64,000 nucleotides of DNA, taken from the IMG/VR virus record IMGVR_UViG_3300021085_000009, positions 32,001 through 96,000 of that record; one strand, written 5' to 3'. Positions within the stretch are counted from its first letter, which is position 1, and the number at the start of each line of letters is the position of its first letter. The translations under genes were made by a program, and so were the position numbers. Under the pieces are notes generated by a model that saw only the letters and a list, made by a program, of their open reading frames with translations, ran no database searches and was not told the origin of the DNA. Shown here piece after piece: positions 33,835-56,300 of the stretch. This DNA is from a virus.

Positions 33835-36800
33835 CTATTTAATTTGCTCTTTGAGATCTTTGATGTCTTGTACCAATCTATTTATAACACTTTGTTGTTC
33901 TTTCATGCCTTCTATAAGTAATCCCACCATGTTACCATAAGCTACATTTTTAGGATTAATATCGCCATTCCCGTCTTCAGGAGTTTCTGATACAAGACAC
34001 TTAGTTTCGGCTATAGCTTCTACTTCCTGTGCTATAACTCCCATGCTGTCATCGCCAGACTCTTTCCATTTAAATGTAACACCTCTCAATTTACTAATAG
34101 TATCAAGTGGATTTTCAATTGTTTTTATTTCAGTCTTTAATCTTTCATCAGAATAAGCAGTTACGTTACCAGCAAATGTAACGTTACCTGACCTATCCAT
34201 CGTCATTAATGAAGTTCCCCAACCACCATTTCTATGGCCGTGATCTTTCTTAATTCTAAAGTTACTGTCTGTGTAACCAAAACCTACTGTATATGTTTCA
34301 GTATTATTAACATGAGAAAATATAATTGAAGGTTTATCAGTACCAGCTGTTCCATTGATTCTATACTCTGCAATACAACCCCATGCAAAGTTTCCTGACG
34401 AATTCTGGAAAAGAGAGCCAATATTATTTCCCCCTCCGTTTGTTTGCGTAACCTTTAATGCTGGAGTTGATGTAACACTTTGAAGATTTGTTGAACTAGC
34501 AGGGTCTACATAAAAGCCACTACTGTTCTGATCGTAAAAACCTGAAGCTGAGCAGGTACCAACAAGGGCCAAATTACCTGTAGTAGCGTTTAGTGACATT
34601 TTCGATGTTGCAGTCGCACCACCACCACCGCCAGTACCAGTTTCCCAGTTCCACCCATAAGTAGCTACGCCTTCCATTCTTGAACGTAATGCCCAAGATG
34701 TTACACCAGCCAATCCAGTAGGAGGTGTTAAGTTTCCATTTGGTCCACAGCTACCTTGTCCCGGCGCTCCCATGTAATCTTGCCAGTTATAATATGATTC
34801 GTTATACCAGCTGATTCCAGTTGTCGCTGTCGATACTCTCATCAACGATAAGCCATGAGCTTTAACAGAAGCAGTGCCATCTCTTTTTACAATACTATTA
34901 TTTACTGCACTTTCTTCTGCGTTATAGCCATCAAGCAAATCAGCATCTAATCCTGAACCTGAACCATCATTATTATCACTCCATAACTTATTCCAACTAA
35001 AGAAAGTTCCAGACTGATGCCATCCTCGTGCATATAATGAAGTGCTGTTGTACCCTCCATATATTTGAAGCCCCGTATCTATACCCTTAGCAACAATTAA
35101 CTGAGCGTAATCAGGTGCACCAGAAGGTTTATTTGAATTGGTTCCGGATCCAGTATTGTAAAAACCACTGGTTAAATATGAATTAAGATTTGTTGCGTTA
35201 GTTCGTGAACCATCCATGTGTTCAACAAACTCAGAGGCGTGTTTTCCATCAAGTAAATCTGCATCTAGACCAGAACCTGAGCCATCATTACCTGCATGCC
35301 AGGCCACATTAGCTCCACCGATATAAGTTGTTCCGCCTCTATAATAGTTTAGGTATAAATTACCATCTGCTGCCGAGTCAATGTGTAAGTTAGAAGAAGA
35401 GCTAATTCTGTGAATGCCATTTGAGTTTGTTCCGGTTGACCACCCACCTACATATAGAGACGCTCCTCCATTTCCTCTAGTAGATATTATGGCTGGAGAG
35501 TCACTTGCTGGGAAAGTGTAAGTAGTTCCTGCAGTTACTGTATCATCAGCGTCGCTTCTTAGGAATGAAGCAGCATGTAATCCATCAACAGTATCAGAGT
35601 TACCACCATTTGCTGGAAGAGAAGTAGGATTAGTATAGTATGAACCTTGTTGACCATCAAGTAAATCTGCATCTAGTGTTGAACCTGAGCCATCGTTTGA
35701 ACTATTCCAGAATTTATGGTTATACGCGCTTGTAGCAATTCCGTATACAGCAGGTGTTCCAGCACTGTTATACGATACTGGCATATTAAGATATACTTCG
35801 TTAGCAACTCCACTGTCAGCTTGTGCTGATGTTCTTTCCGAAACAGTAACATCATAAGCGGCGTTTGAATGATCATACGAATACCATTTGTGTGGTGAAG
35901 CAGATACATAGTTTGAGGCTGATGTACTGTCATTTACTTCAATACTAATATCAGCATTTGACCATATATGATATGTTGCTGTACCACCTCTAAGCCATAC
36001 AACGTGTTTCATCGTATGTGCTGTAAACGCAATACCACCAAAGATTCTACGATAGACTTCACCAAATTCTTGAACTCGTATTCCAGTAGGATAACCACCC
36101 CACCCAGATGATCCCATAATTTTATAGTTAAAAGTAAGTCCACCCATGTGAGTAGAACTACCCCATGAAGATGGAGCAGTTTCACCATAACCTCTAAAAA
36201 TTTGGAAATCAGTTACTCTATCACCACCTCCACCACTTATAACTACAGGGTAGTAAGTAGCGGCATCACCATTAACAGTAAAGTCTATTCTTTCACCAAC
36301 ACCTAGCTGGTTGTGAAAATGCATATTATCAACAGTATCAGAGTTACCACCATTTGCTGGAAGAGAAGTAGGATTAGTATAATAAGAACCATGTTGGCCA
36401 TCTAATAAATCAGCATCTAATCCTGAACCTGATCCATCATTACCAGCGCCCCATAAGTTTCCTTGGCCTGCTGTAACCATCAACCCGTTTGTTCCAATAC
36501 TCATTCTAGGTACAGTAGTACTTGAAGACCAACCCCCAAGAACCATCGTATTAGAAGTATCTAAGCCCCAGTTAATAGCATACGCCCCACTTCTATGGAA
36601 AGCCATATATGCAGCCGTAGTACCAGTAGTATATGCTTGTAAAGAAGCACTTCCACCTCCACCAAGAGGTGACGTAGCAGTTCCCGCAGGTTTGAAGTAT
36701 TTCGTACCTGTAATAGTTACTGCATTTGTAGATGAGACTGTTTCTGCTGTTAGAGTACCTGTGTTAGTTGTATATCCAGAAGGATTACTTGCAGGGTAAT

Positions 36801-39800
36801 AGTAAGAACCTTGCTGTCCATCGAGAAGATCAGCATCTAAGCCACTACCTGAACCATCGTTGCCAGAATCCCAAATTTTTCTCCAGCCTGAATATTCATC
36901 GTTATTCCAGCCAGTTTGGTAGTGTAGTTGACCCGTATGAGGTGCGTATAATTTAAAAGTAGAATTATCTAATTGCCATGACAAAACTCCACCATACGAA
37001 TAAGCTGATGTTGGGTAATTGCTGTGTCCACTTGCAGTATTTTGTACTTCATATACACCCATGTGCCCGTCAGTCTGACTGAAAATAGTATCCCAGTTTC
37101 CAGAAACTAGACCTTTATAATGCATTAGGTAATCTTTGTGCTTACCATCAACAGTATCAGCATCTAGACCTGAACCTGATCCATCGTTTCCAGCATGCCA
37201 GACAAGATTTGATGTACCTTGATAAATTCCTGTGCTAGTCATTTTTGCCCAGTTACCTGTTCCACCATCACCAAAATTAATTGGTCCATTTGATGCTGGA
37301 GATAATTCTATTCTCGCCTGAGAACTTCTTAATGTAAGCCCCCAATAAAAAGCTATCTGAGCTTTGTTGTGTGTGCTATGATATCCCGCTACATTTGTAC
37401 GACCTATACCATACCAAGGAGAGTCATTGTATGCATCAGCAAAATTTGTTGTCCCTCCTGCAATAAGCAATTTAGTATTATGAAGATATCCTAGAGTTAA
37501 ATAATTTGCGGAACTTGATGCACCACTATCTGAGGCATCACTTCTTAGGAATGAAGCAGCATGTAATCCATCAACAGTATCAGAGTTACCTCCATTAGCT
37601 GGAAGTGAGGTAGGATTAGTATAATAAGAACCATGCTGTCCGTCTAATAGATCAGCGTCTAATCCTGAGCCAGCCCCGTCTGATGAAGAGGTCCATATAG
37701 TCTGCCATGCTCCTCTACCTCCTCCTGTTGCTGGTCTTAAATAAAACTTACTCGTCGTAGAGTCGTTAGCCGCTAAATCAAACCCAGCTGTATTTCCTTC
37801 AACATTGTAAGAGGTGTGCAGTACAAAGTTTACTGATGTAGCATTTGGTATAGTTGAACTGGAAGATGCTACTCTATAAAAGCCGCTTTTTAGATGTCCA
37901 CTTGGATTTAAAGCCGCACCACTTATTGAATTTGTTGCTGTGCCGTTATCTCCGTAAACAATTCTCGAAGCCTGTTTGCCATCAACAGTATCTGCGTCTA
38001 ATCCTGAACCTGAACCATCGTTACCTGTATGCCATAGCTTGTACCAAGAAGTCCAACTATTTGTCGCACTCCAAGCCTCCGATCTTACATAAAATGCTGC
38101 AGTATTATTACTACCTCCAGAACCCGCGGCAAGTTGGGACCTTGCGCTTGAATCATAGTAAGCAAAATCTAAACCAGTTGCGTAGTTTCCAGTATCTGGA
38201 CGATTTGATACTCCTCCGACATTAGCAGTATGGAAAGCAGTAACCCCTCTAGGACCTCCAATACTATTTAAGTCTGAAGTTTCTCCATATTGAAGTGTAA
38301 TTCTTCCGGAAGCTATGTCTGCAGTATCACTTCTTAAGAATGAAGATGACTGTATTCCATCAACTGTGTCAGCATCTAATCCTGAGCCTCCGCCGTCATT
38401 AGATGTTGTCCATACTTTACTATTATTTACTCTTAATTCTGTAGCATTTGCAAAGTTCATTATTGAATCTGTAGAATCATCTATAGCATATAAAGTAACT
38501 CCAGCTGAGCCAGCAAAATTAATACCTTCGCCTGGATCATTCATGGAAAGTTGATTTACACCAGTAATATTATAGTTAGACCCTGTAATACCACCGGTTG
38601 CCAAATCACCTACATTAATACCAGCACTAAATGTAATTGTTCCTGTTGCAGTATCAGCGGCGTCGCTTCTTAAATATTTTGTTTGCGTAGGTAATCTAGC
38701 TTCTGGAACTGTTCCACTTGAAAGATTTGAAGCATTTAAAGTATTTAGACCAGAACCATTTCCTTGCCATTGACCTGTAGTGTACACATTCTTGTTAAAT
38801 TCAAATCTGTTATCGCCTTCGTCCCAAAGCATTTGGGCACCTGAACCATCAACAATTAAACCTGATCCTCCAGAGTTTGCTTCTGTTTGCCCTGCACCTA
38901 CTGTAATTGTTTTATCTGTAACATCTAAATCTGTGACATTATAAGAATTAATGTCACCTGTAATACTAAGATTACCTTGTACTGTTAAATCTTGGAAAGT
39001 TGGAGAATCAGAAGTCCTAACATTTTGGTTCATGGCATAGAGCTCATTAGCTCCGTGACCAGTATTTACAGTAGTTGCTGTAATTGCACCACTATTAATA
39101 GTTCCATTTATAGTCCAGTTACCTGAAGTGGATAAAAGCGAAGCATTTGTTCCACTTCCAAATGGTCTAAATTGTAAAGCAGAAGAACTATCACTAGGGT
39201 TGGCTGCAATATCCCACATGACATTACCACCATTTTTTAACCTTGTATATGCCCAACCCCCATTCCCTTGTATTTCAGCTCTTGTAACCATTCCAACTAC
39301 ACCTGAAGATGTAATAGCACCACTAGAGATAGTTCCTATGTTTAATAAATTCCTAGAATTATCAATAACAGTAGATGCTCCAACCTTATAAGAAGAAGAT
39401 GTAACTACGCCAAAAGTAGATGTTCCTGTACTTGTAATAGCACCACTAGAGATAGTTCCTATGTTGGTTAGATTACGAGACGAGTCTATTACATTGGTAT
39501 TATTAACTCTATAACCTGCAGTATTTAAGAAAGATAAATTGCCTGACATTTCAGGTGAACCTGAAGAAGTCCATTCACCTAAGGTAAAATTACCATCGCT
39601 AGTCATCGTTAAACTTCTTGATACTACACTTGCCCAATGGAAGTTTAAGTTTGGAGAATACTGATTATTGGTTGAGTTATTGGTATTTAATCCTCTTTCT
39701 CTTATAGAGATAGGTGACACCTGCCAATCATCATGACCAGTAGTATGGTGCGAATGAAATTGACTTACATTTGCTCCTGAATTTACAATAAGTCTAGCAC

Positions 39801-40236
39801 TAGAGATAGTTCCTACATTTGTGGCTGGGTTATTTTTAAAATCTACTGCACTTCCAGTTAACGCAAACTCTACGCCGCCACTAGCTCCGTGCGTGTAAAA
39901 ATTTAAGACATTACTATTAGCTGCAATTAAAGGTTTATTAGAACCATATCCACCTGCCCATTGGATATCTGCACCATCATTTAGTTGTATTTTACCTGTT
40001 ACTGCAGTATTAGAACCAAGTGTGATTAGTGAACCAGTATCTGTAATGTTTGAATCGTCTAATATTGTGCCATTGAATTTGACTACTTTATTAGTAACAA
40101 TATTTGTGACACCGATAGATGTTGCCGATATTGCACCAGATATTGTGGTTGCTTGAAGTTGTCCGCTCGAATTGACTATAAGAACACCGCCCACTTCGAG
40201 GCCGTTCTTTATTCTGAAATTATGATGTGTTGCCAT
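33835..40236 (-). CDS. Long tail fibre protein (2133 aa) with nine repeated linkers, knob-like modules and an S74 chaperone
   Basis: Nine W...DGxGSxLDADxxDG linkers. C-terminal SDERLKTEI...GVIAQEVE...LIEGMKE. Confidence 0.9.
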   Translation of the reverse strand: MATHHNFRIKNGLEVGGVLIVNSSGQLQATTISGAISATSIGVTNIVTNKVVKFNGTILDDSNITDTGSLITLGSNTAVTGKIQLNDGADIQWAGGYGSNKPLIAANSNVLNFYTHGASGGVEFALTGSAVDFKNNPATNVGTISSARLIVNSGANVSQFHSHHTTGHDDWQVSPISIRERGLNTNNSTNNQYSPNLNFHWASVVSRSLTMTSDGNFTLGEWTSSGSPEMSGNLSFLNTAGYRVNNTNVIDSSRNLTNIGTISSGAITSTGTSTFGVVTSSSYKVGASTVIDNSRNLLNIGTISSGAITSSGVVGMVTRAEIQGNGGWAYTRLKNGGNVMWDIAANPSDSSSALQFRPFGSGTNASLLSTSGNWTINGTINSGAITATTVNTGHGANELYAMNQNVRTSDSPTFQDLTVQGNLSITGDINSYNVTDLDVTDKTITVGAGQTEANSGGSGLIVDGSGAQMLWDEGDNRFEFNKNVYTTGQWQGNGSGLNTLNASNLSSGTVPEARLPTQTKYLRSDAADTATGTITFSAGINVGDLATGGITGSNYNITGVNQLSMNDPGEGINFAGSAGVTLYAIDDSTDSIMNFANATELRVNNSKVWTTSNDGGGSGLDADTVDGIQSSSFLRSDTADIASGRITLQYGETSDLNSIGGPRGVTAFHTANVGGVSNRPDTGNYATGLDFAYYDSSARSQLAAGSGGSNNTAAFYVRSEAWSATNSWTSWYKLWHTGNDGSGSGLDADTVDGKQASRIVYGDNGTATNSISGAALNPSGHLKSGFYRVASSSSTIPNATSVNFVLHTSYNVEGNTAGFDLAANDSTTSKFYLRPATGGGRGAWQTIWTSSSDGAGSGLDADLLDGQHGSYYTNPTSLPANGGNSDTVDGLHAASFLRSDASDSGASSSANYLTLGYLHNTKLLIAGGTTNFADAYNDSPWYGIGRTNVAGYHSTHNKAQIAFYWGLTLRSSQARIELSPASNGPINFGDGGTGNWAKMTSTGIYQGTSNLVWHAGNDGSGSGLDADTVDGKHKDYLMHYKGLVSGNWDTIFSQTDGHMGVYEVQNTASGHSNYPTSAYSYGGVLSWQLDNSTFKLYAPHTGQLHYQTGWNNDEYSGWRKIWDSGNDGSGSGLDADLLDGQQGSYYYPASNPSGYTTNTGTLTAETVSSTNAVTITGTKYFKPAGTATSPLGGGGSASLQAYTTGTTAAYMAFHRSGAYAINWGLDTSNTMVLGGWSSSTTVPRMSIGTNGLMVTAGQGNLWGAGNDGSGSGLDADLLDGQHGSYYTNPTSLPANGGNSDTVDNMHFHNQLGVGERIDFTVNGDAATYYPVVISGGGGDRVTDFQIFRGYGETAPSSWGSSTHMGGLTFNYKIMGSSGWGGYPTGIRVQEFGEVYRRIFGGIAFTAHTMKHVVWLRGGTATYHIWSNADISIEVNDSTSASNYVSASPHKWYSYDHSNAAYDVTVSERTSAQADSGVANEVYLNMPVSYNSAGTPAVYGIATSAYNHKFWNSSNDGSGSTLDADLLDGQQGSYYTNPTSLPANGGNSDTVDGLHAASFLRSDADDTVTAGTTYTFPASDSPAIISTRGNGGASLYVGGWSTGTNSNGIHRISSSSNLHIDSAADGNLYLNYYRGGTTYIGGANVAWHAGNDGSGSGLDADLLDGKHASEFVEHMDGSRTNATNLNSYLTSGFYNTGSGTNSNKPSGAPDYAQLIVAKGIDTGLQIYGGYNSTSLYARGWHQSGTFFSWNKLWSDNNDGSGSGLDADLLDGYNAEESAVNNSIVKRDGTASVKAHGLSLMRVSTATTGISWYNESYYNWQDYMGAPGQGSCGPNGNLTPPTGLAGVTSWALRSRMEGVATYGWNWETGTGGGGGATATSKMSLNATTGNLALVGTCSASGFYDQNSSGFYVDPASSTNLQSVTSTPALKVTQTNGGGNNIGSLFQNSSGNFAWGCIAEYRINGTAGTDKPSIIFSHVNNTETYTVGFGYTDSNFRIKKDHGHRNGGWGTSLMTMDRSGNVTFAGNVTAYSDERLKTEIKTIENPLDTISKLRGVTFKWKESGDDSMGVIAQEVEAIAETKCLVSETPEDGNGDINPKNVAYGNMVGLLIEGMKEQQSVINRLVQDIKDLKEQIK
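33879..33886 (-). promoter_or_regulatory. T4 late promoter embedded in the 3' end of the 2133-aa gene (serves the 1478-aa fibre)
   Basis: Exact TATAAATA about 50 bp upstream of the next start codon. Confidence 0.65.
35555..37635. repeat. Three near-identical intragenic DNA repeats (around 35555-35700, 36328-36445 and 37541-37680)
   Basis: 35555-35604 = 37541-37590 (50 bp), 35584-35637 = 36328-36381 (54 bp), 36368-36393 = 37610-37635 (26 bp). Confidence 0.9.
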
Positions 40237-40283
40237 AAGGTTTCACTCTCCACCGTTTAGCGTTAATAAATTTATTATACTTC

Positions 40284-40291
40284 TATTTATA
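40284..40291 (-). promoter_or_regulatory. T4 late promoter TATAAATA
   Basis: Exact consensus upstream of the 2133-aa fibre. Confidence 0.8.
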
Positions 40292-40297
40292 CATTTA

Positions 40298-43200
40298 CTA
40301 AACTAAGATGGAATGTCTAACAACCTTAAATTGCATTGAATCTGCAGATGCTGGAGTTGCAAGAAGTCTTATATTACCCGAAACTATATCAGCATCGAAT
40401 GTGGCCTCTGCAGCACTACCTGTAAATATTGTACCGTATTCTGTCATTGATGGAGTTGTACCATCATGTATTAAAAGTATTTCTGTAATCTGATATGTGC
40501 TATCAGTTGTGTTAGTAATTTGTACTGTAAATCTAGCTGATCTAAAATCGGCTGCAGGGAATGTATCTACCTGAGCCGCACTAGTCGCTGAAGTGTTAAC
40601 AGCGTATGTATCGATACCAGCATGATCCACTTGAAATTCTGATTTAACATTAGTGGAATTAAATCCATCACCTACTGCAACTCGGCCGGTTGATGTGTCC
40701 ATGTACATAAGACCAGTGTTTGTTCCACCAGTATTTCCACGGAACTCAAAGTCACCAGCTGCTGTACCCGTTGTTGCTTTCCAAGTTCCACCATAGTTTC
40801 TAAATTCACCAACTGATGCTGTATATACGTTAGAAGCAGATGTAATACCAGCGGTATTAAGATACATTCTTTGAGCACCGCCAGCAGAAAATCTTAACGT
40901 ATCTGCCTGGCTATCAATATACATTCCAGTATTTTGATCACTATCAAAAGTATAAGTTGGAGCAGCAGGAGTACCATTACTTGCTTTTATAGTATCCGAA
41001 TATACACTTAACCACTTCTTACCAGAAGAACCTAAATTATAATAACTATCTGTAGAAGATTGAAAAGACCTTTGAATTTCAATATGGTCTAGTGTATTAT
41101 TATATGCTATCTGAGCCCAAGCATTTCCTGCCGAGTTATAAAGTTTTAATGCGCTACCGTTATCAATTCTAATATCACCAGCAACATGTAGTTTATGAGT
41201 AGGAGCAGTCGTTCCGATTCCAACCTTACCGCCCCAAAGAGATATAGTCTCTAATGAGCCGGCGCTCATAAGCGCCATACGAGGACTGCCAGTGCCGTCT
41301 ACTCTAAGTTTTATACCTGCATAGTCCCAACCTGCGTTATTTGAAGCACCAAGTTTTAATCCCCAATTATCTTGGTTAGCTGCATAAGTGATAGGAGTAG
41401 AATATATTCCTCCAGCATGAATATGGAGTTTTTCAGTTGGCGAAGTTGTGCCAATTCCAACCTTGCCATCGCCTTTTATCATCATGTCTGTGCGATTGTC
41501 TGTTACGTTATGAAATCCTAAACCAACTGCACTTTGTAGTCCTATTCTAAATGTATCATGGTTGGTTCTTTCTAATCTTATTTGGTCTGCACTTGTGCCA
41601 GATATATGAAGCGCTGCTGATGGATTATTTGTACCAATTCCAAGATTTCCAGCTTCTGTAAGACGCATTAGTTCTGTACCAGAACTACTATTTCCGTTTA
41701 TATTCCATTCAAAAGATCGGTTTGTATCATCGTTATCACTATCAATATTAAATGTCATATTCTCAAAAGCATTGATATGACCACTGCTTGAATCAGCAGT
41801 ACCTAGGTATATTTCTCCGCCTAAAACACTAACAGTTCCAGAAGCAATAGTATTACCACTTGAATTTACATTTAATTTAGTAACACCACCAACTCTGAAT
41901 TCATGACCAGATACTGTTCCACCTAAAGAGCTTCTACCATAAGCTACAGCGGAACCGTTCCAATACATTAACTGAGTATCTCCGCCCGTTGCACCACCAC
42001 CAACAATAGCAGCACCAGAATTAATTTTAACCCCGGATCCTGCTGCACCACTTACATGAATACTTTTATTAATGTCCCATTCATCAGTTGTGCTTGCATA
42101 TGTGATTCTGGCATCTGTGTCAGATCCACAATCAACTGTAATCCCTGCACTATTTGCTGCTGCTTTGTTTGCAGATCCACTTGCAAGAGTAATATTCTTA
42201 TCGTCTACCGTTAATGTAGTAGAATTAATCGTTGTGGTAGTACCATCTATTTGTAGATTACCTGCTATAACGACAGTTCCTGTATCATCCCCATGAGCTG
42301 CAGGGTCAATCGTAAATGTGGAAGGACCTCTTAGGTATCCAGTTGTTGTGATATTGGCCGCACTAATATTTCTACTTGCATCGACAAAAGCAGATCCGCC
42401 TACTTCTATTGCTCCTCCTGCCGCTACTCTAAAGTAGTGGCCAGAACTATTCTCTGCTCTAATAGCATATCCTGAATCTTGTCTAATATCGAGTTTTGCA
42501 CCAGCAGTAGTATTTCCAATTGCTACGTTACCGTCTCCAGTAACTCGCATACGCTCAGAAGGTTCAGCAGAAGGGCCTGAAGTAGCAATAATTAAATCAT
42601 GGTCATTTGCTGTACTTTGAATCTCTGCCGCAAGGTAAGCACCTCGTACGGTATTTTGAATACCCCCTAAGAAAATACTACTTGCTTCTCCAGTGGAGCC
42701 AGAGTCATTTCCTCGTACAACTAGACCGTAAGCTTTATTTGCTGTTGCTTGAACTGAATACTCTATGTACTGGCGACCAAAAGTGTGTAGAGCAGGATTC
42801 GTTGATCTGTTTATTCGTACTAGCTCAGTGTCTGTACTTCCAATAAGCCCTCTAAACTCTAGTCTATCATTCTGCCCATTGTAATTAATTTTAAAGTTAC
42901 TTGTACCAGAGACTTCGGAAAATATAATTGTGCCATTCGGATTTGTGTTTGCTCCAGAATTATCAAGCAGAGTAATTGTTGGATCTGTTTTTGAAATAAG
43001 TAAATCACCGGATGTGGTAATAGCACCACTAGAGATAGTTCCAACTGAAATATTATCACCCGATTGGTAATATGTGGAATCTAAAATACCAGTAAAATTA
43101 CCTGCAGTAACAATTTTACTTCCTCCGGTTAGGTTTGCGGAAGTGGCCCAGTATGGTTCGTCATCTGTACCTTTACCAAAATACCTTGAGTTACCTGCAC

Positions 43201-44305
43201 TAAATTGTATACCAACTTGATTACTAGTAGGACTAGCTCTTTCTAATGTAAGAGGTGTTGCATTATTATTAGATGTTAAAACTGATAGACCATCAATATC
43301 TAATGAATCAGCTTGTACTTCTCCTGTTATGTCTATACCTAAGCTGGTTGTTGCTAGTTTTTGGTTTGCATTGTGATATAGATTTACACTACCACCATCA
43401 TAAGCTACCAAATAATTAGCACCCACTGAATTACTTACAACCAGTGACGTACCTTGTAAATACAAATTACCTGTGCCATTTTCTTTTATGTAACTATTAC
43501 TGCCATCATGGTAGATTTGTAAATCTGAAGAGTTACCAAATACTGCTTTGTCACCATCGCCGAAGTTTAAGTTAGCAGATGTAGTACCACCATCAAAAGT
43601 AATTGTTCCTGTAACATCTATACCTGTTGAGGTTGTTTCTAGCTTTTTAGAATTATCATAGAATAATTTAACTGCACCATTTTGTGTTGCAGTAAGCATA
43701 TCTTCATTTAATGCCACATTTCTTATAGCAAGTACATCTGAACCTATTAATAATTTACCAGTACCTGCATCTTTAATTACGCTATTGCTACCATTATGAT
43801 AGATTTGTAAGTCTTGAGAATCACCAAACTGTAATTTTTGATTATCATTAAAGTTTAAATTGTTTACAATAGAGACATCTGATTTATAAGCATGAATTTG
43901 AATTAAGTCGCCAGCATCTGCAGCAGTAGTTAATACTACCGATGTTCCATTAGTGCCAGTGTAATCTTGAGAAGAACCTTCATCAAGAAGAATACCATTC
44001 ATAAAGACTTGAACGGAAGGAGGAGTGCCTGTGTTATAGGCTAGAGTATTTGAATTATTGTCAGTACCAGAAAACGTTGTTTGGTTAGCAGTTGCTGTAT
44101 ATTCATACGCAATAAAGCTGGATGCTATTCCTGAGGCACTACCTCCAACCTCTACAATAGTATCAGTACCGCCTACGCTCTTCTTCATGTAGACTTTACC
44201 GTCTGCAGTATTAAGTGCGAGTTCCCCTAGGTTTAAATTAGATGTGCTGGGTATAGACCCACTGACGGCTGAGCGTCGTAAACGAATGTCTGATAATCTG
44301 GCCAA
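40298..44305 (-). CDS. Tail fibre / fibre hub protein (1335 aa, TTG start)
   Basis: N-terminal IRLRRS...GELALN motif, FGDxxDLQIYH and VGIGTTxP repeats, and a C-terminal RSARF...EILLIHD...TEYG domain. AGGAG RBS. Confidence 0.85.
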   Translation of the reverse strand: MARLSDIRLRRSAVSGSIPSTSNLNLGELALNTADGKVYMKKSVGGTDTIVEVGGSASGIASSFIAYEYTATANQTTFSGTDNNSNTLAYNTGTPPSVQVFMNGILLDEGSSQDYTGTNGTSVVLTTAADAGDLIQIHAYKSDVSIVNNLNFNDNQKLQFGDSQDLQIYHNGSNSVIKDAGTGKLLIGSDVLAIRNVALNEDMLTATQNGAVKLFYDNSKKLETTSTGIDVTGTITFDGGTTSANLNFGDGDKAVFGNSSDLQIYHDGSNSYIKENGTGNLYLQGTSLVVSNSVGANYLVAYDGGSVNLYHNANQKLATTSLGIDITGEVQADSLDIDGLSVLTSNNNATPLTLERASPTSNQVGIQFSAGNSRYFGKGTDDEPYWATSANLTGGSKIVTAGNFTGILDSTYYQSGDNISVGTISSGAITTSGDLLISKTDPTITLLDNSGANTNPNGTIIFSEVSGTSNFKINYNGQNDRLEFRGLIGSTDTELVRINRSTNPALHTFGRQYIEYSVQATANKAYGLVVRGNDSGSTGEASSIFLGGIQNTVRGAYLAAEIQSTANDHDLIIATSGPSAEPSERMRVTGDGNVAIGNTTAGAKLDIRQDSGYAIRAENSSGHYFRVAAGGAIEVGGSAFVDASRNISAANITTTGYLRGPSTFTIDPAAHGDDTGTVVIAGNLQIDGTTTTINSTTLTVDDKNITLASGSANKAAANSAGITVDCGSDTDARITYASTTDEWDINKSIHVSGAAGSGVKINSGAAIVGGGATGGDTQLMYWNGSAVAYGRSSLGGTVSGHEFRVGGVTKLNVNSSGNTIASGTVSVLGGEIYLGTADSSSGHINAFENMTFNIDSDNDDTNRSFEWNINGNSSSGTELMRLTEAGNLGIGTNNPSAALHISGTSADQIRLERTNHDTFRIGLQSAVGLGFHNVTDNRTDMMIKGDGKVGIGTTSPTEKLHIHAGGIYSTPITYAANQDNWGLKLGASNNAGWDYAGIKLRVDGTGSPRMALMSAGSLETISLWGGKVGIGTTAPTHKLHVAGDIRIDNGSALKLYNSAGNAWAQIAYNNTLDHIEIQRSFQSSTDSYYNLGSSGKKWLSVYSDTIKASNGTPAAPTYTFDSDQNTGMYIDSQADTLRFSAGGAQRMYLNTAGITSASNVYTASVGEFRNYGGTWKATTGTAAGDFEFRGNTGGTNTGLMYMDTSTGRVAVGDGFNSTNVKSEFQVDHAGIDTYAVNTSATSAAQVDTFPAADFRSARFTVQITNTTDSTYQITEILLIHDGTTPSMTEYGTIFTGSAAEATFDADIVSGNIRLLATPASADSMQFKVVRHSILV

Positions 44306-44386
44306 TGTTGGCTCCTATGTTTCAACTCTTATATAAGAGATATTAATTAAAAATAAAATTTCTGCTAATATATATTAGCGTATATC

Positions 44387-44394
44387 TATTTATA
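44387..44394 (-). promoter_or_regulatory. T4 late promoter TATAAATA
   Basis: Exact consensus, followed by two palindromes in the leader. Confidence 0.8.
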
Positions 44395-44420
44395 ATGTTT
44401 AGGAAGCCAATTGCTATGTT

Positions 44421-46034
44421 TTAGTAAGTTCCGCCATCTATTACATCAGAAGCGAATGGAACACCTGAACCATTAAACTGAATCAGATCTCCTTGAGTAC
44501 CAGTTACTTGCGATAAAGCAGTACCTGCACCGTTTGATATAAATACACCGTTACCTGTAAAGCTTGATACTCCAGTACCACCGTGAACAACTGCAAGGTC
44601 ATTACCAAGTGTTACAGTTCCTGATACATCTAGGTTACCATTAAGATCAAGGTCTGCATTTACTTCAACTTCATTAGTAGCTGAATCAAGTACTAACTTA
44701 CCAGCCGTTGTGGTAATAGTTTGGTCATCAGCAATACCAACTGTGATATTACCAAGATCAGCACCTGTACCATAAATGTTTCCAAATTCAGCATCACTCC
44801 ATGGTGCGGAAGCGTCTTCTCCACCACTTAAATCTTCGTCTTTAGTAAATACAAATCTTTCTGTTTGTATATCAAATCCAAAGAATCCAGTAGCAACTGC
44901 AGAACCAGTTCCCCATTTAAATCTTACACCACGATCAAGACCATCTGATGTATTTGAAGAAGTGTTATCTGCTAATGCGATTACTGGGTCGTCTAATGTT
45001 ACAGTTGTTGATTCAACTGTGGTTGTTGTACCTTGTACTGTAAGGTTACCCGAAATAACTACGTTATCTGTAAGACCATTACCAAGATTAATAGAAGAGC
45101 CATTGACATTTAAGTTGCCATCAATAACTGTATTACCAGTAGCACCTGCGACTGTTAATTTGTTTGAACCTACTACTAAATCTGTTGTTACTGTTAAATC
45201 GTTTCCTACAGTAACATCATTAGGTAATCCAACTACGACTTTTACATCTGTACCTACTTTAGTTACAGCAGTTTCAATTTCATTAGTTGTTCCAAGTATC
45301 TGTAAATCATCTGTTAGAATATCTACATCTTGTGCACCAGTATCACCGTCAACTGTTAATGCTGTTGCAACAGCAACTTGGTTAGCAGCTATTAAACGAC
45401 CTTGTTGGTCAACTGTAAAGGTTGGAATTTGTGTAGCTGAACCATAAGACCCTGGAGTTACTGCAGTATCATCTAGGTCAATTTCAATTGTATTACCTGA
45501 ACCGGTTGTTGTAATACCAGTATCACCTGAAATAGTAAGTGTTTCTGAATCAAGGTCAATAGATAATGCACCACCATTATCACCTTGGAAGTCTAAGTCT
45601 TGTGCTGTAACAACACTATCAATATATGTCTTAGCGGCTAGTGCTGTAACTAACTGAGAGTTAGTAGCACCTGCTAAAGTTGTTGATGTTGATATGCTTG
45701 TTACTACTTGACCTGAACCTCCAGTTGCTTCAAGAGCAAGAGATCCAATATTTAATTCTGTTACATGTTTATTAACATCTACGATTAACGCTTTATTGGC
45801 TGTTGTAGCACCATGTACATGATCGAGTAATCCTACAAAATACTTACCGCCAATTAAATCGACACTAGAAGCAACCCCACCAGATTCTGTTCCAGTACCA
45901 ATATATAATCTATCACCATTGTTTGCTTGTGTACCAGCTACATATGAGTATGCTAATTCACCTGTTTTAATATTACTAGGGGCATTGGTGGTTGCACCCG
46001 TAGTTAAGATTTTTATTCTTGTTAAATTAGCCAC
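44421..46034 (-). CDS. Fibre connector/structural protein (537 aa)
   Basis: N-terminal RIKI...GELAYSY, fibre motifs VTPGSYGSATQIPTFTVDQQGRL, GNLTVQGTTTTVES and LAVVHGGTG, ending in IDGGTY. Confidence 0.8.
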   Translation of the reverse strand: MANLTRIKILTTGATTNAPSNIKTGELAYSYVAGTQANNGDRLYIGTGTESGGVASSVDLIGGKYFVGLLDHVHGATTANKALIVDVNKHVTELNIGSLALEATGGSGQVVTSISTSTTLAGATNSQLVTALAAKTYIDSVVTAQDLDFQGDNGGALSIDLDSETLTISGDTGITTTGSGNTIEIDLDDTAVTPGSYGSATQIPTFTVDQQGRLIAANQVAVATALTVDGDTGAQDVDILTDDLQILGTTNEIETAVTKVGTDVKVVVGLPNDVTVGNDLTVTTDLVVGSNKLTVAGATGNTVIDGNLNVNGSSINLGNGLTDNVVISGNLTVQGTTTTVESTTVTLDDPVIALADNTSSNTSDGLDRGVRFKWGTGSAVATGFFGFDIQTERFVFTKDEDLSGGEDASAPWSDAEFGNIYGTGADLGNITVGIADDQTITTTAGKLVLDSATNEVEVNADLDLNGNLDVSGTVTLGNDLAVVHGGTGVSSFTGNGVFISNGAGTALSQVTGTQGDLIQFNGSGVPFASDVIDGGTY

Positions 46035-46282
46035 TAGTATGTGCCTCCAATTATATTGAGATTTTGATTCTCTAAACTTGTTATGACTTCGTATTTACCC
46101 GAAGATCCATTTCTTTGTAGCATTCCGCCATCAGGATTTCCATTAACAGTTACGTCTGTTAGATCTCCTAGCGTTAATTCGAAATTACCAACCGTTACAG
46201 ACTTAGCTTGTATTTCTTGTTGAGCTTTAGATTTACCTTTAACTCTTCCGCCTGTCTGAATTTTTGCTTTCATGTTAGCCAT
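46034..46282 (-). CDS. Small structural adaptor (82 aa)
   Basis: LGDLTDV fibre motif, ends in IIGGTY, stop overlaps the next start. Confidence 0.7.
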   Translation of the reverse strand: MANMKAKIQTGGRVKGKSKAQQEIQAKSVTVGNFELTLGDLTDVTVNGNPDGGMLQRNGSSGKYEVITSLENQNLNIIGGTY

Positions 46283-46294
46283 TTATTCTTTACC

Positions 46295-46627
46295 TTATCT
46301 TGTTACACCTGGTGAAACTTCTACTTGTCCTTCTAAAACTCTTGTAACGACTCCTGTAGATGATGTAATTTCGACATCATATACATATCGTCCAGCCTTC
46401 ATAGCATTAGTAGTAGAAGCATCTAGAAGTAACTTAATAGTTCCAGCACTTGTATTAAATACCGTTGCAACAAAGGCTACAGCTGTAGAGGAACTAAAGT
46501 TTTTTCTAATCTGTCCTGCTACAGTGTAATTCGTTAAATTTAATATAGCATCTTCCGCATCAGTAATATCTACTTTTATATCAAAGGTACTACCTTGGTC
46601 AATATTTAAATTTGAGTATATAGCCAT
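46295..46627 (-). CDS. Conserved Ig-like virion adaptor protein (110 aa)
   Basis: NLNIDQGSTF...YTVAGQIRK...GRYVYDVEI...TRVLEGQVEVSPGVT pattern common in marine T4-likes. Confidence 0.75.
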   Translation of the reverse strand: MAIYSNLNIDQGSTFDIKVDITDAEDAILNLTNYTVAGQIRKNFSSSTAVAFVATVFNTSAGTIKLLLDASTTNAMKAGRYVYDVEITSSTGVVTRVLEGQVEVSPGVTR

Positions 46628-46637
46628 TAACTTTTAC

Positions 46638-49600
46638 CTATCTATTTATACTTTTAAGATTTTCAATCTCATCTCTAAGATATTTATTTTCTTCTTTTAA
46701 TTCTTTTATTGCTTCAATAAAGAATGCAGATAGTTGGTTATAATCTACAACTTTATGTGTCTCATCAGTACCAAGTGTTTCTACTTCTTTAACAGCACTT
46801 GGGATTACCTTTTCCATGTTTTGAGCAATTACACCAGCTGAAGCTTTACCATCTTTCTTCCAATTAAATGTTACACCATCTAATTGTGAAACTAATTCTA
46901 AGGCACCTTCAACTTTTTGGATGTTATCTTTTAGTTTAGCATCTGATGCAGTAGTATTTGAGACTGCAACAATATCGTCGGAAGCATGAAATGTTCCATC
47001 ATTGCCAAACCTGAATTCTTCTCGCATACTGCCACTTACTTCAGCATTAATACTAATCCTAGAATTGCCCGTCCCGCCGGTGCCAACAATTTCAATAGCT
47101 GGGCCCATACTGTGATCCCAATGGAAACCGCCGCCACCACTTCCCATTGAAAGTTTGGATAATCCCTGAGGATACATGTAGTAACTAGTAGTACCGATAT
47201 ATGATACATCACCTCTTAGATCGCTCTCTACACTAAATACTGTACCATTAAGATCTAATCCGCCACCTGCAGAATATGTTGTATTACTGTCTACTAAAGT
47301 AATTGTTGTATTACCTGATTGATCAACTGTAAATGCTTGATTAGATATTCCAGGTTGGACTATAGTAATTGTACCATTATTTGCCGCACTTGGTATACTA
47401 GGTTTACTCGTTAAATCACTGTAATCATAACCAGTACACCTTGATAAATCCCCTTGGAAGTTAAAGTTAACATCACCTAAGATATTTGTGCTTGGATCAT
47501 ACATCATACCAGGATCGTATTTTAATGATTTGTTTCCTGATGAGTTAACGCTTACAAACGTAGGGTAATGTACTCCAGCTGTTCCTGCAGTTTGCGTGGT
47601 ATATATGTTTGAGCTATTAGTTGCACTTGTTGCTGTAGATGCATGTGTTGCGGTATCGGCATTTCCTTCTAGATCACCATCAAATTTTGTTGCTGTAATT
47701 TCAGCAAAACCATGAAGATGAGCTGTATGTGGATTATAATTAAAGTGAGAATTGTCAGTATCAATATAAGGCCTTTGATATGATGAACCATTGAGTGTAC
47801 CAAAGTATACTTGATAATTAGCATTAGTATTTGTTTCATCAACATTAATGTTATGAGCATTTGTTGCTGTCGTTGCTGTCGTTGCTGTTGTAGCATTACC
47901 ACTTAAAGCACCACTAAATGTTGTAGCATATAGAGTATTTGTATCCATCCTTGCAGTTATTCCTGAAGTTGAATAAACATTACCCTGGGTATTAATACCA
48001 TTATGAGAACCTAAAATTCTCATAACAGTGGTACTATTATATTGGTTTACATACACCTTATCAGAATTAGTAGCATTAGTAGCATTAGTAGCACTTCCAG
48101 CTGTTGTAGCTGTTGTAGCACTTCCAGCTGTTGTAGCAGATGTGGCTGTTGTAGCATTACCTGATAAAGCACCAATAAATGTAGTCGCAGATATTGTATT
48201 ATCATTCGGCTGAAATGTTATTCCAGCAGTAGAATATAGAGTATCACCACTATGCCAAACTGCGCGGTAATTGCTGTTTGCATTTGAATCATTAACATCT
48301 ACTGTATCAGCCCAAGTAGCTGTATCAGCATTTCCTTCTAGAGCACCATCAAATTTTGTTGCTGAAATTTCAGCAAAACCATGAAGATGATTTGTGCTTG
48401 GATTATAGTTAAAGTGGCCATTATCAGTATCGATATATTGTCTATTATATCCAGCATTGTTGTTAGCACTAAATGTTACTTGGTAGTTAGTATTACCATT
48501 TGCTTCGTCAATATTAATGTTATCAGCATTTGTTGCATGACCAACACTTGTAATATCTTTACTAACAAGATCAGTAATATGTCCAAATCCATCAAGAGTA
48601 ATATCTTGGATAACATTGTTACCGCTATTATTAACACTGGCTTGACTTGAAGTATCTGCGTGAGATACGCTAAAAGTACTAGCGCCCGATTGATTAGCTG
48701 ACCAGTTAGTATCACCACCAAGAGATATACCACTGCCAGATGCTGTTGTAACTGTGGTAGTTCCGTCACCTATTACAACAGCAGCACTAGTTGCACCAGT
48801 TACGTGACCGTATGTATCAAAGGTTAAATCTTGTATAAATGTATTACCAGAATTATTAATATCAGCTTGACTTGATGTATCAGCATGATTAATAGAAATA
48901 TGATCTGATGATGCACTAACCGATAATGTAATACCAGAGTTTCCAGCATCAAGATAAAGAGTATCATTGTTATTATCTGCTACTACTGTTCCTAGTACGC
49001 TATCTGCTAAATTCCTAACTACGATATTCTTAAAGATATTCTGTGATGAACCTTTATCTGTATTTGTAACAGCAAAGGTAAGATCGAATGGATCTGCATC
49101 TGAACCAGGAGAAGTGTCTGTCCAATTAATATCAATGGATGCACCTGAACCAGCACCTTCAACGAATTTCCATTCTTTACCTTGAGTAATAGATAGTTCA
49201 GTACCATCTCCGTCTTCTACTTGGAATGATTGAATATATCTAGTATCGAAGTTTCCAGTTTGAATATTTGTTAAATGACCTCTGTCATCAACAACAAGTC
49301 CTGAAACATATATACCATTCTGTGTTGAAAGGTTACCGTATGCTCCGTTTAATGTGGAAGTATCAGAGTGATTAATTGTAATCGTATCGCCAGATCTTGC
49401 TGACTCTAGCATCGTGCCGCCATGAATAGTTAGTGTATCATTATTACTATTTGCTACAGCTGTACCGCTATCAGTTGCAATATTTTTCCAGATATACTGT
49501 GATGAACCTCTATCGGTATTATTATATGTTACAGCAAATCCTGATACGCTTTCGCTTAATCCAGCTCCTGCACTAAATGTTAAATTATCACCAGGACCAA

Positions 49601-53342: not shown

Positions 53343-56300
53343 TTATGCCGTCGTTGCTATTGCTCTAAAGTCTCCCAACATTGGAACATTAGAGCTGTTA
53401 CGTGATCTTAGTACTACCTTAATTGCAAATTTTGAGAATGCTCCATCTACTACGCCACCTGCTAAACTATTTGCAACTGTAGGATTAATTTCAAAATGTG
53501 CTTCACTCATTCCACTATCAGATACTGGAATTGTGTTTACTGGATTAGCTGGTCTCCAATTTAACTGTGTAAAATCTGAATCGTCTGCACCTGATTGTAC
53601 TTTATAATATAAGTCAACTGAAGAATCAGCTGGCCTTGCTACTGACATATAAACATCGATTAAATCAGCTTCGTTTTCTAATTCAATTTTCTTAGTTATA
53701 TATTTAGCTAAGTTTGTAGTACCAGAAGGTTGTGTCTCAGCTACTAATCTACTATTGGTAGCATAATAAGGTGCAGTAGCGTCATTGATTCTATTTTGAA
53801 TAGTAAACAATGAAGTTCTTTCCAAATCAATGGTTGGAGATATTCTATCGTTTCCATTGTTATTTAATGTACATTTAATTTCTGTAAGTGTTGTAGCTCC
53901 ACCATTTGCATTAGGTGACATAACCATATATGGTTTTTCTGGAACAAAGTTACTATTAGGTAATATTTCAATTTGAGTTTGAGCAGTATATGATTGTTGT
54001 GTTGTACTATCTTGAGATGCTGCTGAAATACCAGTTAAATCTGTTTGTATTGAAGTTCCAGGAACTTGAGTGTTTTCCATTTTTAATACTAATGTATTAT
54101 ATAACATATTTTCAGTAGCAGTAACATTATCTCCACCGCCAAATATTCCAACTGTAGTAGCAGTTCCTGCATGTGTTATAACATATGAGTCATGTTCTAT
54201 CTCTGTAATAGTGTGAGCTTTATTGATGTGTGCTACATTAGTAATACCATTACCAGCAACATAACCAGCAATTATAACTTGATGAGATCCACTACCATAG
54301 TGTCCATGGTTAGAATGATAAACTCTAATTTTATTTGTAGCAATATATTCTAATGAATCTGGATTAAGCTTCTTAGGTTCTATTGAGTCATTGACTAATG
54401 TAACAAATTGATTAGCCGTAGTACTAAATTGGCATCTATTAAGTTTAAATTTAAGATCCTTAGTTTGCTCTGCTGTCCATGTTGAAGCATTAGCTGATGT
54501 AAAGAATACACCGTTATATGGTTGTTTATTAACTCTTTTATTTGTAATGGTTAAATCCATTCCGCCAACTTCTGATACATATACTTTATAATCAGCTGAG
54601 TTTGCAATTAATACAATAGAATACTCAGAGTCTCTTTCCAAATAAACTGGATGTTTAAATCTTATAACAGTTCCTGCTGATGCATCACTTGATATATTAA
54701 TGTTAGCTGGATAAACTGTTACGTCAGAGCCAGGTATAACCTTTTGTGTTGGATAACCATTATCAACAGATCGTATAGAAACTTCCAATGGAATGTTAGC
54801 ATCTATAGATTCAAAGAATAATTCTATCTCATTTAAAAATACACCAGCTCCTGTAGAGTCTGGATCAGTAATTGTAAATGTTTGTGCTACTGGATCTGTC
54901 CATCTGATTAGTTCAGTCGATCTTTCAAATGTAGTTCGACTAACTGCTTTACTTGCTGAACTAACTTCCCTAGTAACTAACCTTGGAACCTTAGTAGCAA
55001 TAATTGTTTTCTGATGAACTTCTAGTAATCCTTGTGCATAATAATTTGCTGATGCATAAGTATCAGCTTCTGATGAATCGTTTGTAGGGCTATCTGTTAG
55101 TTTAAATTCTCTAGTACCAGTTTTAAATTTTAGTACATCGTTTCTAGGAATAATAAATGATCCTATGCATCGACCAGCAGCATCAGTTACTAGTGCACCT
55201 GAATTAGAATCGGGATGTGCACTTTCTCCTGTATGACTTTTAACATTGCTTCTTGTTGAAAATTTAACAAATGATGATTCTTGTCTACAATAGGATGTTA
55301 CTTTAGTACCATTGAAGAAAGCATCTAGCTTTGAATTCGGCTTAAGAAGTTCTGCGTTAAAGAATATTTTTCTTGATCTAATAAATGGTATAAAGTTTGT
55401 TTCTACTACGTAATCGCCAACTTCTTTAAATTGTGTATCTGATGCAACTGAAGTTGTTAGCCCAGATCTTGATTGAGAACCAGTTTCAGTTATAGCTTTT
55501 TGAACATCTTGAACTTCAGCTCTACGGCCACCGTTTCTACCTGGTGCTACAAAACCCATAGCCTCAGCTTTGTTTCTGCTAACTAATCTTTTATTAGATG
55601 TGGTTTCTGTTACTTCTCTACCAGTCCAGTTAGTTTCCCATTCGTTCCATACTGTTCCTAATATGCCTTCTTGCTTAGCCATAGCAACGAACTGATCATA
55701 AACACTAGTATCATCTATGATAATATCTGGTCTTACATCTACTTCTTTCCATTCATCCGATGCAGGAGATAGTTCAATCTTTCCTTCCCATACAAAGATA
55801 TCATATGGATTTACAAATTCAGCATAAGTAGAAAATGGTTGATCGATATAATTAGCTGTAGTATATGGTAGTGTAACCATATCACCTGAACCAGCAAGTG
55901 TGTTTCCTTTTACTCCACTTTCGACTGAAGAGTTAACACATGTACCAGTATCATTAGACTTTCTTACAAGGTTAACGCCTCTTTCATCAAATGATGGTCT
56001 AGCAATTCCAGCATCTTTGTCAACTGAAATTTGATAATCAGGATCATTTGAATTACCAATGTTATGTCCTGTAAAGTTATCTACTATAAATCCGTTTTTA
56101 ATTCTTGGGTTTCCATCGCTATCTAGTAAAGGTGTTCCTTGTGCTGACTTTTCTAATAAAGAAAGCGATGTATAATATTCTAGTGTTTTAATTCGTTTAT
56201 CTAGCTTGCCAATATCTCTCATTGTGTATCGTTTGTTGTCAAATGGTACTGGTTTAATATCTAACTTATTGAATACGTATGGTGATATGTTTAATGTATA

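Follow-up and report, generated by a model that had tools for sequence, protein, structure and literature searches.

A putative serially jointed tail fibre encoded by five adjacent genes of a T4-like myovirus, with two T4-type joints used in series

Introduction

How far can the build of a phage tail fibre be read from the ends of the proteins that make it up? The question is raised by five adjacent genes of an uncultured marine phage of the T4 kind, in a stretch of 64,000 nucleotides (nt), hereafter the window, which covers positions 32,001 to 96,000 of IMG/VR virus record IMGVR_UViG_3300021085_000009 (136,814 bp, with a completeness estimate of 76%). These genes, which like all genes of interest here lie on the minus strand, encode in order of transcription proteins of 110, 82, 537, 1335 and 2133 amino acids (aa), referred to below as P0001 to P0005. 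A sequence-only reading of the window had described them as the parts of one chained fibre, relying on motifs of bacteriophage T4.

As described in passages of Leiman et al. (2010, PMC3004832), the long fibre of T4 sits coaxially on the C-terminal domain of the gp9 trimers, the 'socket proteins', with gp34 bound to gp9 by its N-terminal end, and the N-terminal region of gp37 is bound by trimeric gp36. A passage of a 2026 preprint (10.64898/2026.03.06.709160) has the T4 fibre held via (gp9)3 on the docking loop of gp7. For comparison, genes 9, 34, 35, 36 and 37 of T4 (NC_000866) were translated, and the T4 motifs it had cited proved right: gp36 ends QDFGYY, gp37 starts ...IQFKRS...GELAIN, the gp9 C-domain reads YNMAKLLV...EINILVD...SEYA...KVI, and gp34 starts MAEIKREFRAEDGLDAGG.

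We consider it reasonably probable that the five products form one serial jointed fibre. The homology of the ends and the gene-order statistics are what we observe; that the parts bind at each step, that they are trimers and where they are anchored is what we infer from them. The products would assemble head to tail, in gene order, into one jointed trimeric tail fibre that uses two joint types of the T4 long tail fibre. At joint A, a gp36-like ...[ILV]-D/I-G-G-T-[YF]-COOH end would take the gp37-type N-terminus of the next protein, and this joint would occur twice, between the 82-aa and 537-aa proteins and between the 537-aa and 1335-aa proteins. At joint B, a jellyroll of ~110 aa of the gp9-C type would take coaxially the gp34-type N-terminus (MATxxNF[RK][IV]KNGL) of the 2133-aa fibre, the putative distal receptor-binding unit, which is predicted to end in a self-cleaving chaperone. 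The orthogonality of the two joints would give the chain its fixed order. Its root, the 82-aa protein, would probably be anchored to the virion by the 110-aa immunoglobulin (Ig)-like protein.

Results

A five-gene cassette with matching ends

The cassette and the parts relevant to the two joints are as follows, in window coordinates.

46295-46627, minus strand: P0001, the 110-aa Ig-like protein, from the list of open reading frames (ORFs)
46034-46282, minus strand: P0002, 82 aa, with a Lys-rich N-terminus and the C-terminal end ...NLNIIGGTY at 46037-46054
44421-46034, minus strand: P0003, a 537-aa rod with a GTG start and the C-terminal end ...VIDGGTY at 44424-44441
about 45903-46034, minus strand: gp37-type N-terminus of P0003, which starts ANLTRIKI...GELAYSY
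40298-44305, minus strand: P0004, a 1335-aa putative connector rod with a TTG start, made up of a gp37-type plug, a variable shaft and a gp9-type socket
44129-44305, minus strand: N-terminal gp37-type plug of P0004, residues 1-59, which starts LARLSDIRLRRSAVSGSIP...GELALNTADG
40301-40630, minus strand: C-terminal gp9-C-like jellyroll of P0004, residues 1226-1335, the proposed socket
33835-40236, minus strand: P0005, the 2133-aa fibre, which begins MATHHNFRIKNGLEVGG
40168-40236, minus strand: gp34-type N-terminal plug of P0005 (MATHHNFRIKNGLEVGGVLIVNS), from the translation

All five ORFs and all the motifs quoted in the sequence-only reading are present, and the translations agree with it. Of the 2133-aa gene, which continues to 33835, the range it had given (40180-46627) includes no more than the first 19 codons. 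In translation, the C-terminal end of P0004 reads ...FRSARFTV...EILLIHD...TEYG...FKVVRHSILV. Its shaft matches the fibre of cyanophage P-SCSP1u (8i4m) in a search of PDB sequences; among the PHROGs, P0002 matches phrog_13853 (E 9.5e-7) and P0005 matches tail-fibre families. A split or frameshifted single gene was also considered, and was ruled out by the separate starts, the intergenic gaps of 61-115 nt and the late-promoter-like motifs described below.

The C-terminal domain of P0004 resembles the gp9 socket

The domain that ends P0004 is widespread. Residues 1200-1335 matched 4544 protein clusters at E <= 1e-3, and 1432 at 1e-10, among 1.84 billion representatives. Judged by eye, 149 of the 150 clusters listed have the match ending no more than two residues from the C-terminus, the remaining one having seven copies, and among the matches listed the carriers span 87 to 3211 aa. 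Conservation is high over the last ~100 residues: in our alignment of the domain (A1), the other 29 rows are 58-99% identical to the sequence from the window.

An AlphaFold2 model of the socket segment had a predicted local distance difference test score (pLDDT) of 77.6, rising to 80-93 in the core blocks. Foldseek returned T4 gp9 (1qex_A) as the top PDB hit of this model (E 5e-5), and VIA-align placed model residues 27-136 on gp9 residues 169-283 with a Z of 12.2 and a root mean square deviation (rmsd) of 2.7 Å over 109 residues, the best match in the PDB. Next came a 303-aa chain of Klebsiella phage KP1 (9f4a, Z 10.4), which is itself a gp9 homologue (phmmer E 8.7e-57). When the search was run without the Foldseek prefilter, 4 of 48,161 representative chains were found at Z >= 8, all of them C-terminal domains of phage connectors or tailspikes, and unrelated folds stayed at Z <= 6.3. 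Profile comparison by hhalign agreed with the fold: the socket profile matched a 25-sequence gp9 alignment with a probability of 73.4% and E 3e-5 over 85 columns (segment 44-129 against gp9 186-276), and paired FRSARFTV with YNMAKLLV, EILLIHD with EINILVD, and TEYG with SEYA. The earlier proposal that the 1335-aa protein ends in a domain of the gp9-C kind was thus borne out, including the pairs of motifs it had named.

Socket-like domains also occur in other settings. Stand-alone socket-only proteins of 117-123 aa were seen in eleven of the collected loci (L numbers denote loci described below): L044-L046, L048, L049, L051, L052, L055 and L056, and L047 and L050. In L047 and L050, a plug-bearing fibre gene comes next after the socket-only protein, which then looks like a mini-gp9; at the other loci of this kind unrelated small Cys-rich or basic ORFs come next. 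An internal gp9-like domain, about 1100 to 1840 aa before the end, is found in proteins of 2545-3163 aa in L059-L063, L068 and L069 (match at 6001-6294 of the loci). The proteins with such an embedded domain lie directly upstream of gp8 homologues and are giant proteins at the gp7 position. In the window, the segment just before the socket gave a weak sub-threshold match to Pfam Mtd_N at its residues 3-15 (17.7 bits).

The ends that would form joint A

The N-terminus of P0004 is recognizable by plain BLASTP against T4 gp37 (residues 1-56, E 5e-8, 20/59 identical, 34%). The N-terminal motif of a gp37-type start, [IL]x[FIL][KR][RK]S...P...L..GELAxN, is found at residues ~5-35. As a single sequence the N-terminus of P0003 did not match gp37 in BLASTP, and a profile of nine P0003-type N-termini matched the gp37 N-terminus with a probability of 74.9% and E 2.6e-5. 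The two starts are thus gp37-like, as had been claimed for the 1335-aa and 537-aa proteins.

The opposite side of this joint is shorter. A C-terminal end of the form D-[FY]-G-x-[YF] is present in 118 of the 120 gp36 homologues listed (of 316), and of the two exceptions one is without the final residue and one is a partial sequence; the D-x-G-x-[YF] end that the sequence-only reading had relied on is thus the conserved end of the gp36 family. In the IDGGTY end of P0003, the D, G and Y are placed as in gp36, with G instead of F/Y at position -4, a six-residue motif that alone cannot prove homology. Relatives of P0003 end IDGGTF, LDGGTF or LDAGAF. Relatives of P0002 with 71-72 aa end NIIGGTY or NITGGTY (L026, L040), and a 199-aa form is present in L019. 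The Pfam gp36 family (PF03903) was unmatched in P0002 and P0003, and the best BLASTP E value between P0003 and gp36 was 0.99.

The proposed plug and distal unit of joint B

The motif F-R-x-x-[DN]-G-L-[DE]-x-G-G occupies residues 7-17 of P0005, within its first 20 residues. BLASTP of this N-terminus against T4 gp34 gave 8/19 identical residues (E 0.036), and a profile of 28 such N-termini matched gp34 residues 5-24 with E 2.7e-4, 40% identity over 20 columns and a probability of 41.5%, joining extreme N-terminus to extreme N-terminus. The gp34 likeness proposed for the 2133-aa fibre is therefore seen at profile level, weakly.

At the other end, P0005 carries a Peptidase_S74 domain (PF13884) at residues 2029-2076 (34009-34152; E 1.2e-14, 54.7 bits against a cut-off of 22). 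As this is an intramolecular chaperone, nothing could dock on the primary C-terminal end of P0005, which fits the last position in a chain.

The 1863-aa fibre further along the module also begins with a gp34-type plug, MAFRTGDGLEVNG. Its upstream neighbour, a 1478-aa protein, was compared with the socket profile over its last 200 aa by hhalign, and no match was found. Either the two plug-bearing fibres share the single socket, or the 1863-aa fibre docks elsewhere. The 1478-aa protein was considered as a member of the chain and rejected, the C-terminal end of the preceding fibre being a cleaved chaperone.

Two further kinds of N-terminus were seen in the collected loci. That of the 1478-aa protein (AKSKGRLLAELL...) is seen again in L016, L021 and L022, immediately downstream of socket-bearing proteins, and in L021/L022 a 135-aa protein with this N-terminus ends in a socket and is followed by an FRVKNGL fibre; it may be a third kind of plug. 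In L009 (9989-14427) and L039 (10070-10753), proteins further down the cassette start IQ[IL]RRDT...NP.LASGE[IF]G[FY]ETDT, which we take to be an N-terminus of Mtd/HylP-type fibres, and these starts suggest yet another joint type in series.

Gene order and co-variation of sockets and plugs

Eight loci were fetched by the 1335-aa protein and 58 by the socket alignment, giving 66 loci plus the window, in which non-overlapping, same-strand ORFs of at least 60 aa formed 413 adjacent pairs. Sockets were marked by a hidden Markov model (HMM) made from A1, and plugs and ends by conservative regular expressions. A terminal socket was followed by an N-terminus of the F[RK..][IV.]KNGL type in 35/57 cases, compared with 2/356 of the other pairs (Fisher p 2.6e-33), and a ...GGT[FY] end was followed by a basic...GELA N-terminus in 17/23 cases, compared with 11/390 (Fisher p 3.1e-18); these p-values overstate independence, the loci being related and chosen by their sockets, with no correction for kinship. 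No cross pairs were seen, neither a terminal socket before a GELA N-terminus (0/57) nor a ...GGT[FY] end before an FRIKNGL N-terminus (0/23). The regular expressions under-count: 4 of the 6 'misses' of joint A read GEVA instead, and the 82-aa/537-aa pair of the window was itself scored negative. In a reverse test, a narrow DNA pattern for MAT[DE][HK][ND]F[RK][IV]KNGL was run on the viral collection, and the socket HMM ended just upstream of the plug in 14/14 loci, 13 of which were on contigs already in the set. The motif pairs are thus adjacent far above chance and are never cross-paired, much as the sequence-only reading had expected.

After pairs with 90% identity or more in socket and plug alike had been merged, 43 clusters were left, 26 with the strict plug and 5 more with evident variants (LDIQYGLS, RFIGANGL) as judged by eye. 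Of the other 12, six have stand-alone sockets of 122-123 aa that precede small ORFs unrelated to plugs; in the rest, the socket is followed by an N-terminus of the AKSK..LAELL type (2), by the Ig-like protein (2), by a protein that consists of a socket alone (1) or by something else (1).

Proteins that combine a gp37-type N-terminus with a gp9-type socket were found with lengths of 255, 260, 421, 494, 1259, 1335, 1361, 1458, 1531, 1692, 1824 and 2111 aa; in these rods the ends are constant and the shaft is free. Five loci (L032, L033, L035, L036 and L042) hold two socket-plug joints in series with differing socket and plug variants, which would be the expected look of orthogonal cognate pairs. 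In L019, the socket protein is directly preceded by a 199-aa protein that starts like P0002 and ends like P0003, and the arrangement is best described as a chain with one link fewer.

Distances between sockets correlated with those between plugs (Mantel r 0.75, reached by 0/2000 permutations; 33 distinct pairs, with downstream proteins of at least 160 aa, a loose plug expression and exact duplicates dropped). The correlation was r 0.26 for the socket and residues 61-160 of the plug's own protein, and r 0.21 for the plug and its own shaft. This co-variation is supportive and not decisive, as relatedness, physical linkage and saturation of the shaft distances can inflate the contrast.

An Ig-like protein heads the cassette

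The family of P0001 has more than 1000 members, and the 120 listed are 59-97% identical to it. Its PHROG matches are phrog_1084 (E 4.7e-30) and phrog_3304, 'L-shaped tail fiber protein assembly' (E 8.7e-26). The AlphaFold2 model of P0001 is confident (pLDDT 93.7) and matched, by Foldseek, chains of 137-140 aa in the tail-tip structures of phages T5 and DT57C (E 2-4e-8). VIA superposed it on 8hqz_T (Z 12.6) and 7qg9_J (Z 12.5) with an rmsd of 2.4 over 110/110 residues and 21-23% identity; weaker matches were Ig-like neck or connector proteins of myophages Bas63 (9mt4_H) and Sf14 (9c39_J), both with Z 9.4. The earlier description of the 110-aa protein as Ig-like is upheld by this model and these matches. 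P0001 had no Pfam family at E <= 0.01, and phmmer of P0001 and P0003 against PDB sequences gave nothing significant; two relatives of P0001 came close to Pfam LtfC (PF23926), with sub-threshold scores of 25.8 bits for P0487 (cut-off 27) and 20.6 bits for P0473.

From their length (137-140 aa) and from the content of the entries as given in parts of PMC10038345, the chains 7qg9_J and 8hqz_T appear to be p132. Passages of the same source describe p132 as the Ig-superfamily collar of T5, onto which the fibre N-terminus is grafted and which anchors the side fibres. By analogy, P0001 is a reasonable candidate for the anchor of the chain, perhaps at the baseplate or at the neck.

Genomic surroundings and promoter-like motifs

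Pfam and PHROG matches show that the surroundings are the structural module of a T4-like myovirus. In order of transcription, with the cassette standing between the 2155-aa fibre and the 1478-aa protein, it comprises the following genes.

62759-64000, minus strand: gp6, first in the order of transcription
between gp6 and gp8, minus strand: wedge protein, 781 aa
58867-60384, minus strand: gp8, after the 781-aa wedge protein
53343-58829, minus strand: DUF4815 protein, 1828 aa (phrog_358, 1397 bits), between gp8 and the first fibre
after the DUF4815 protein, minus strand: virion protein, 77 aa
before the five-gene cassette, minus strand: 2155-aa fibre with a Peptidase_S74 end
29390-33826, minus strand: 1478-aa protein, after the five-gene cassette
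23747-29338, minus strand: 1863-aa fibre with a Peptidase_S74 end, after the 1478-aa protein
after the 1863-aa fibre, minus strand: neck genes gp13-like, gp14 and gp15, last in the listed order

The 1828-aa DUF4815 protein is conserved; it is a candidate component of the baseplate periphery and could carry attachment sites. A megablast search of 50,697 phage records returned no close relative of the locus.

The octamer TATAAATA, which we take to be the T4 late-promoter consensus, precedes the starts of P0001, P0004 and P0005 by 23-89 nt, and no copy is so placed for P0002 or P0003.

46643-46650, minus strand: TATAAATA, 23 nt upstream of P0001
44387-44394, minus strand: TATAAATA, before P0004
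40284-40291, minus strand: TATAAATA, before P0005

The window has 14 copies on the minus strand and 2 on the plus strand, against a shuffle mean of 7.9. Of the 14 minus-strand copies, nine precede one of the 12 gene starts examined by no more than 150 nt.

Discussion

Several results weigh against the reading of the cassette as one chain. At the level of sequence, BLASTP of the socket against gp9 found nothing, phmmer of P0004 against PDB sequences gave no gp9 match, profile A1 hit among PDB sequences only bd2133-type repeats upstream of the socket domain, and hhalign of A1 against the single gp9 sequence gave a probability of 0.07. Pfam PF23618 was unmatched at E <= 1 by residues 1200-1335 of P0004, and was not found in the record. 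The N-terminal coiled coil and the middle domain of gp9 (PF07880), which bind gp7, were not found either: P0004 has no Pfam family at E <= 0.01, and the record, which is incomplete, has no PF07880 match at E <= 10, so that a canonical gp9 was undetected by either family; in the control, T4 gp9 itself scored 247 bits with PF07880. As such sequence-only searches gave nothing, the link to gp9 is made by the fold comparison and the gp9 family alignment, and the likeness of the modelled domain to gp9 holds at fold level, whereas membership of the Pfam gp9 family does not. The gp34-type match of the plug is short and weak, and hence suggestive, and socket and plug are physically linked on the DNA. 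As to joint A, P0002 ends IIGGTY without the Asp, its successor P0003 is without the basic pair, and the proposed joint between them, missed by the regular expressions, is the weakest of the three, being suggested by family resemblance only. In six clusters, stand-alone sockets of 122-123 aa precede unrelated small ORFs. Finally, the record has one socket for two plug-bearing fibres (2133 aa and 1863 aa). The claim of the sequence-only reading that each C-terminus is the socket for the next product agrees with the homology of the ends and with gene order; the second fibre tells against a simple one-to-one chain.

These points leave room for three other explanations. The gp9-like domain could be the distal tip of an independent 1335-aa fibre, binding carbohydrate or receptor or capping the trimer, in which case every fibre would join the virion via its own N-terminus and the adjacency of the genes would be synteny only. 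The same fold does cap podophage tailspikes, as the C-terminal domain of 7xy1 (7xy1_A, Z 9.7), 6e1r (9.3) and 6c72 (8.7); a preprint with a Klebsiella receptor-binding protein (RBP) atlas lists 'gp9 C-terminal domain-related' as a C-terminal carbohydrate-binding tip module (10.64898/2026.05.12.724579); and 22/57 terminal domains have no strict plug downstream. We nevertheless hold a tip module to be improbable. Fibre tip domains are usually the most variable part, whereas the gp9-like domain is the most conserved part of its carriers (58-99% identity, in proteins of 87-3211 aa). Its best matches are true connectors, gp9 and the homologue from the Klebsiella phage, ahead of the tailspikes, and a tip would not explain the co-variation of socket and plug (r 0.75), the zero cross pairs or the presence of two differing joints serially in single loci. 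The last of these observations also bear on a third explanation, that the matching ends are generic elements of trimerisation or folding nucleation, conserved for folding rather than docking. Many fibre N- and C-termini do bear conserved folding elements, and P0005 itself ends in a Peptidase_S74 chaperone, but a folding element needs no fixed partner in the next gene, whereas strict pairing, no cross pairs and two-gene co-variation are what we see, and the homologous parts of T4 are documented docking sites in passages of PMC3004832. We regard this explanation as very improbable, clearly more so than a tip module.

A different division of the cassette, which we rate about as low as the tip module, accepts joint B alone. 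The 1335-aa protein would then be a greatly lengthened counterpart of gp9, held on the baseplate by its gp37-like N-terminus, and the 82-aa and 537-aa proteins would form a separate short fibre or whisker on the Ig-like collar protein, perhaps at the neck. The resemblance of P0001 to the neck and connector proteins of Bas63 and Sf14 fits such a division, as do the promoter-like motifs, one of which is shared by P0001-P0003 while P0004 and P0005 have one each, the weakness of the 82-aa to 537-aa joint, and the failure to detect a canonical gp9 in the record. Other loci speak for joint A nonetheless: a ...DGGT[FY] end stands directly before a gp37-type, socket-bearing protein in L013, L020, L021, L025, L026, L039 and L040, and likewise in L004/L005, where the end of the locus cuts off the downstream protein before any socket. 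The gp36 family has the same end motif, and gp36 binds the gp37 N-region in T4 according to passages of PMC3004832; in L019, moreover, the 199-aa protein that is P0002-like at its start and P0003-like at its end is placed before the socket protein. Taken together, a single serial fibre with joint A used twice and joint B once is the explanation that we prefer.

Should the joints bind as they do in T4, the sequences of thousands of uncultured phages could reveal how their fibres are built and in which order they assemble, the huge size of fibre genes in marine myoviruses would make sense, as these genes would encode sets of rods, and the conserved, exchangeable connection points could be used for swapping receptor-binding units in laboratory phages. 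A wider reading is that phage fibres are built from a small portable set of at least two orthogonal plug-socket pairs (gp36/gp37 and gp9/gp34) with diverging sub-variants. As a whole we find this conceivable but doubtful, more credible than any of the alternatives above and well behind the serial fibre itself. If true, rods of any length would be chained in fixed order, and recombination with breakpoints precisely at the joints would allow distal receptor-binding units to be swapped. In the present phage, the 2133-aa and 1863-aa fibres would then be alternative distal units for one and the same socket, so that virions would be of mixed type and the host range would be broadened or hedged, and the 4544 socket clusters would point to a major, largely unrecognised principle of fibre architecture in environmental phages.

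Both joint types are already known from T4, and it is their proposed serial reuse that appears to be new. In the literature outside subscription papers, we found no description of a C-terminal gp9-type socket on a rod with a gp37-type plug, nor of an ordered series of the two joints. The closest marine parallel is in Prochlorococcus myophages, where, in passages of Sullivan et al. (2005, PMC1079782), a gp9 homologue lies beside tail-fibre genes or is fused to their N-terminal side. There too, a gp9-related socket adjoins a fibre gene in marine T4-like phages, but it is N-terminal to its own fibre, whereas the socket here is C-terminal on the preceding rod and two joints are serial. With the T5 system of p132 (LtfC) and pb1, the cassette shares the Ig-superfamily fold, the PHROG label and the position of the gene at the head of a fibre cassette; the present phage is, however, a myovirus and not a T5-like siphovirus, and no p140 partner is known here.

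The comparison with T4 itself is the most direct. Joint A is like gp36-gp37 in having a D-x-G-x-[YF]-COOH end followed by an N-terminus of the form [IL]-x-[FIL]-[KR]-[RK]-S...GELA-x-N, encoded by adjacent genes in assembly order, and unlike it in that it would be used twice serially, by 82-aa and 537-aa carriers without PF03903. The gp35 kneecap and gp38 were not found in the cassette, to which the search for them was confined. Joint B is like gp9/gp34 in its C-terminal jellyroll fold (Z 12.2; profile E 3e-5) and in the next protein beginning F-R-x-x-[DN]-G-L-[DE]-x-G-G. It differs in that T4 gp9 is a 288-aa baseplate protein, whereas the domain here ends a 1335-aa rod with a gp37-type N-terminus, and in gene distance, as about 63 kb separates genes 9 and 34 in T4 and the socket and plug genes here are neighbours. 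T4 thus uses each joint once, with the socket in the baseplate; here the socket ends a rod that starts with the other plug, and as the same ends are found on rods of 255 to 2111 aa, the parts may be read as the links of a chain.

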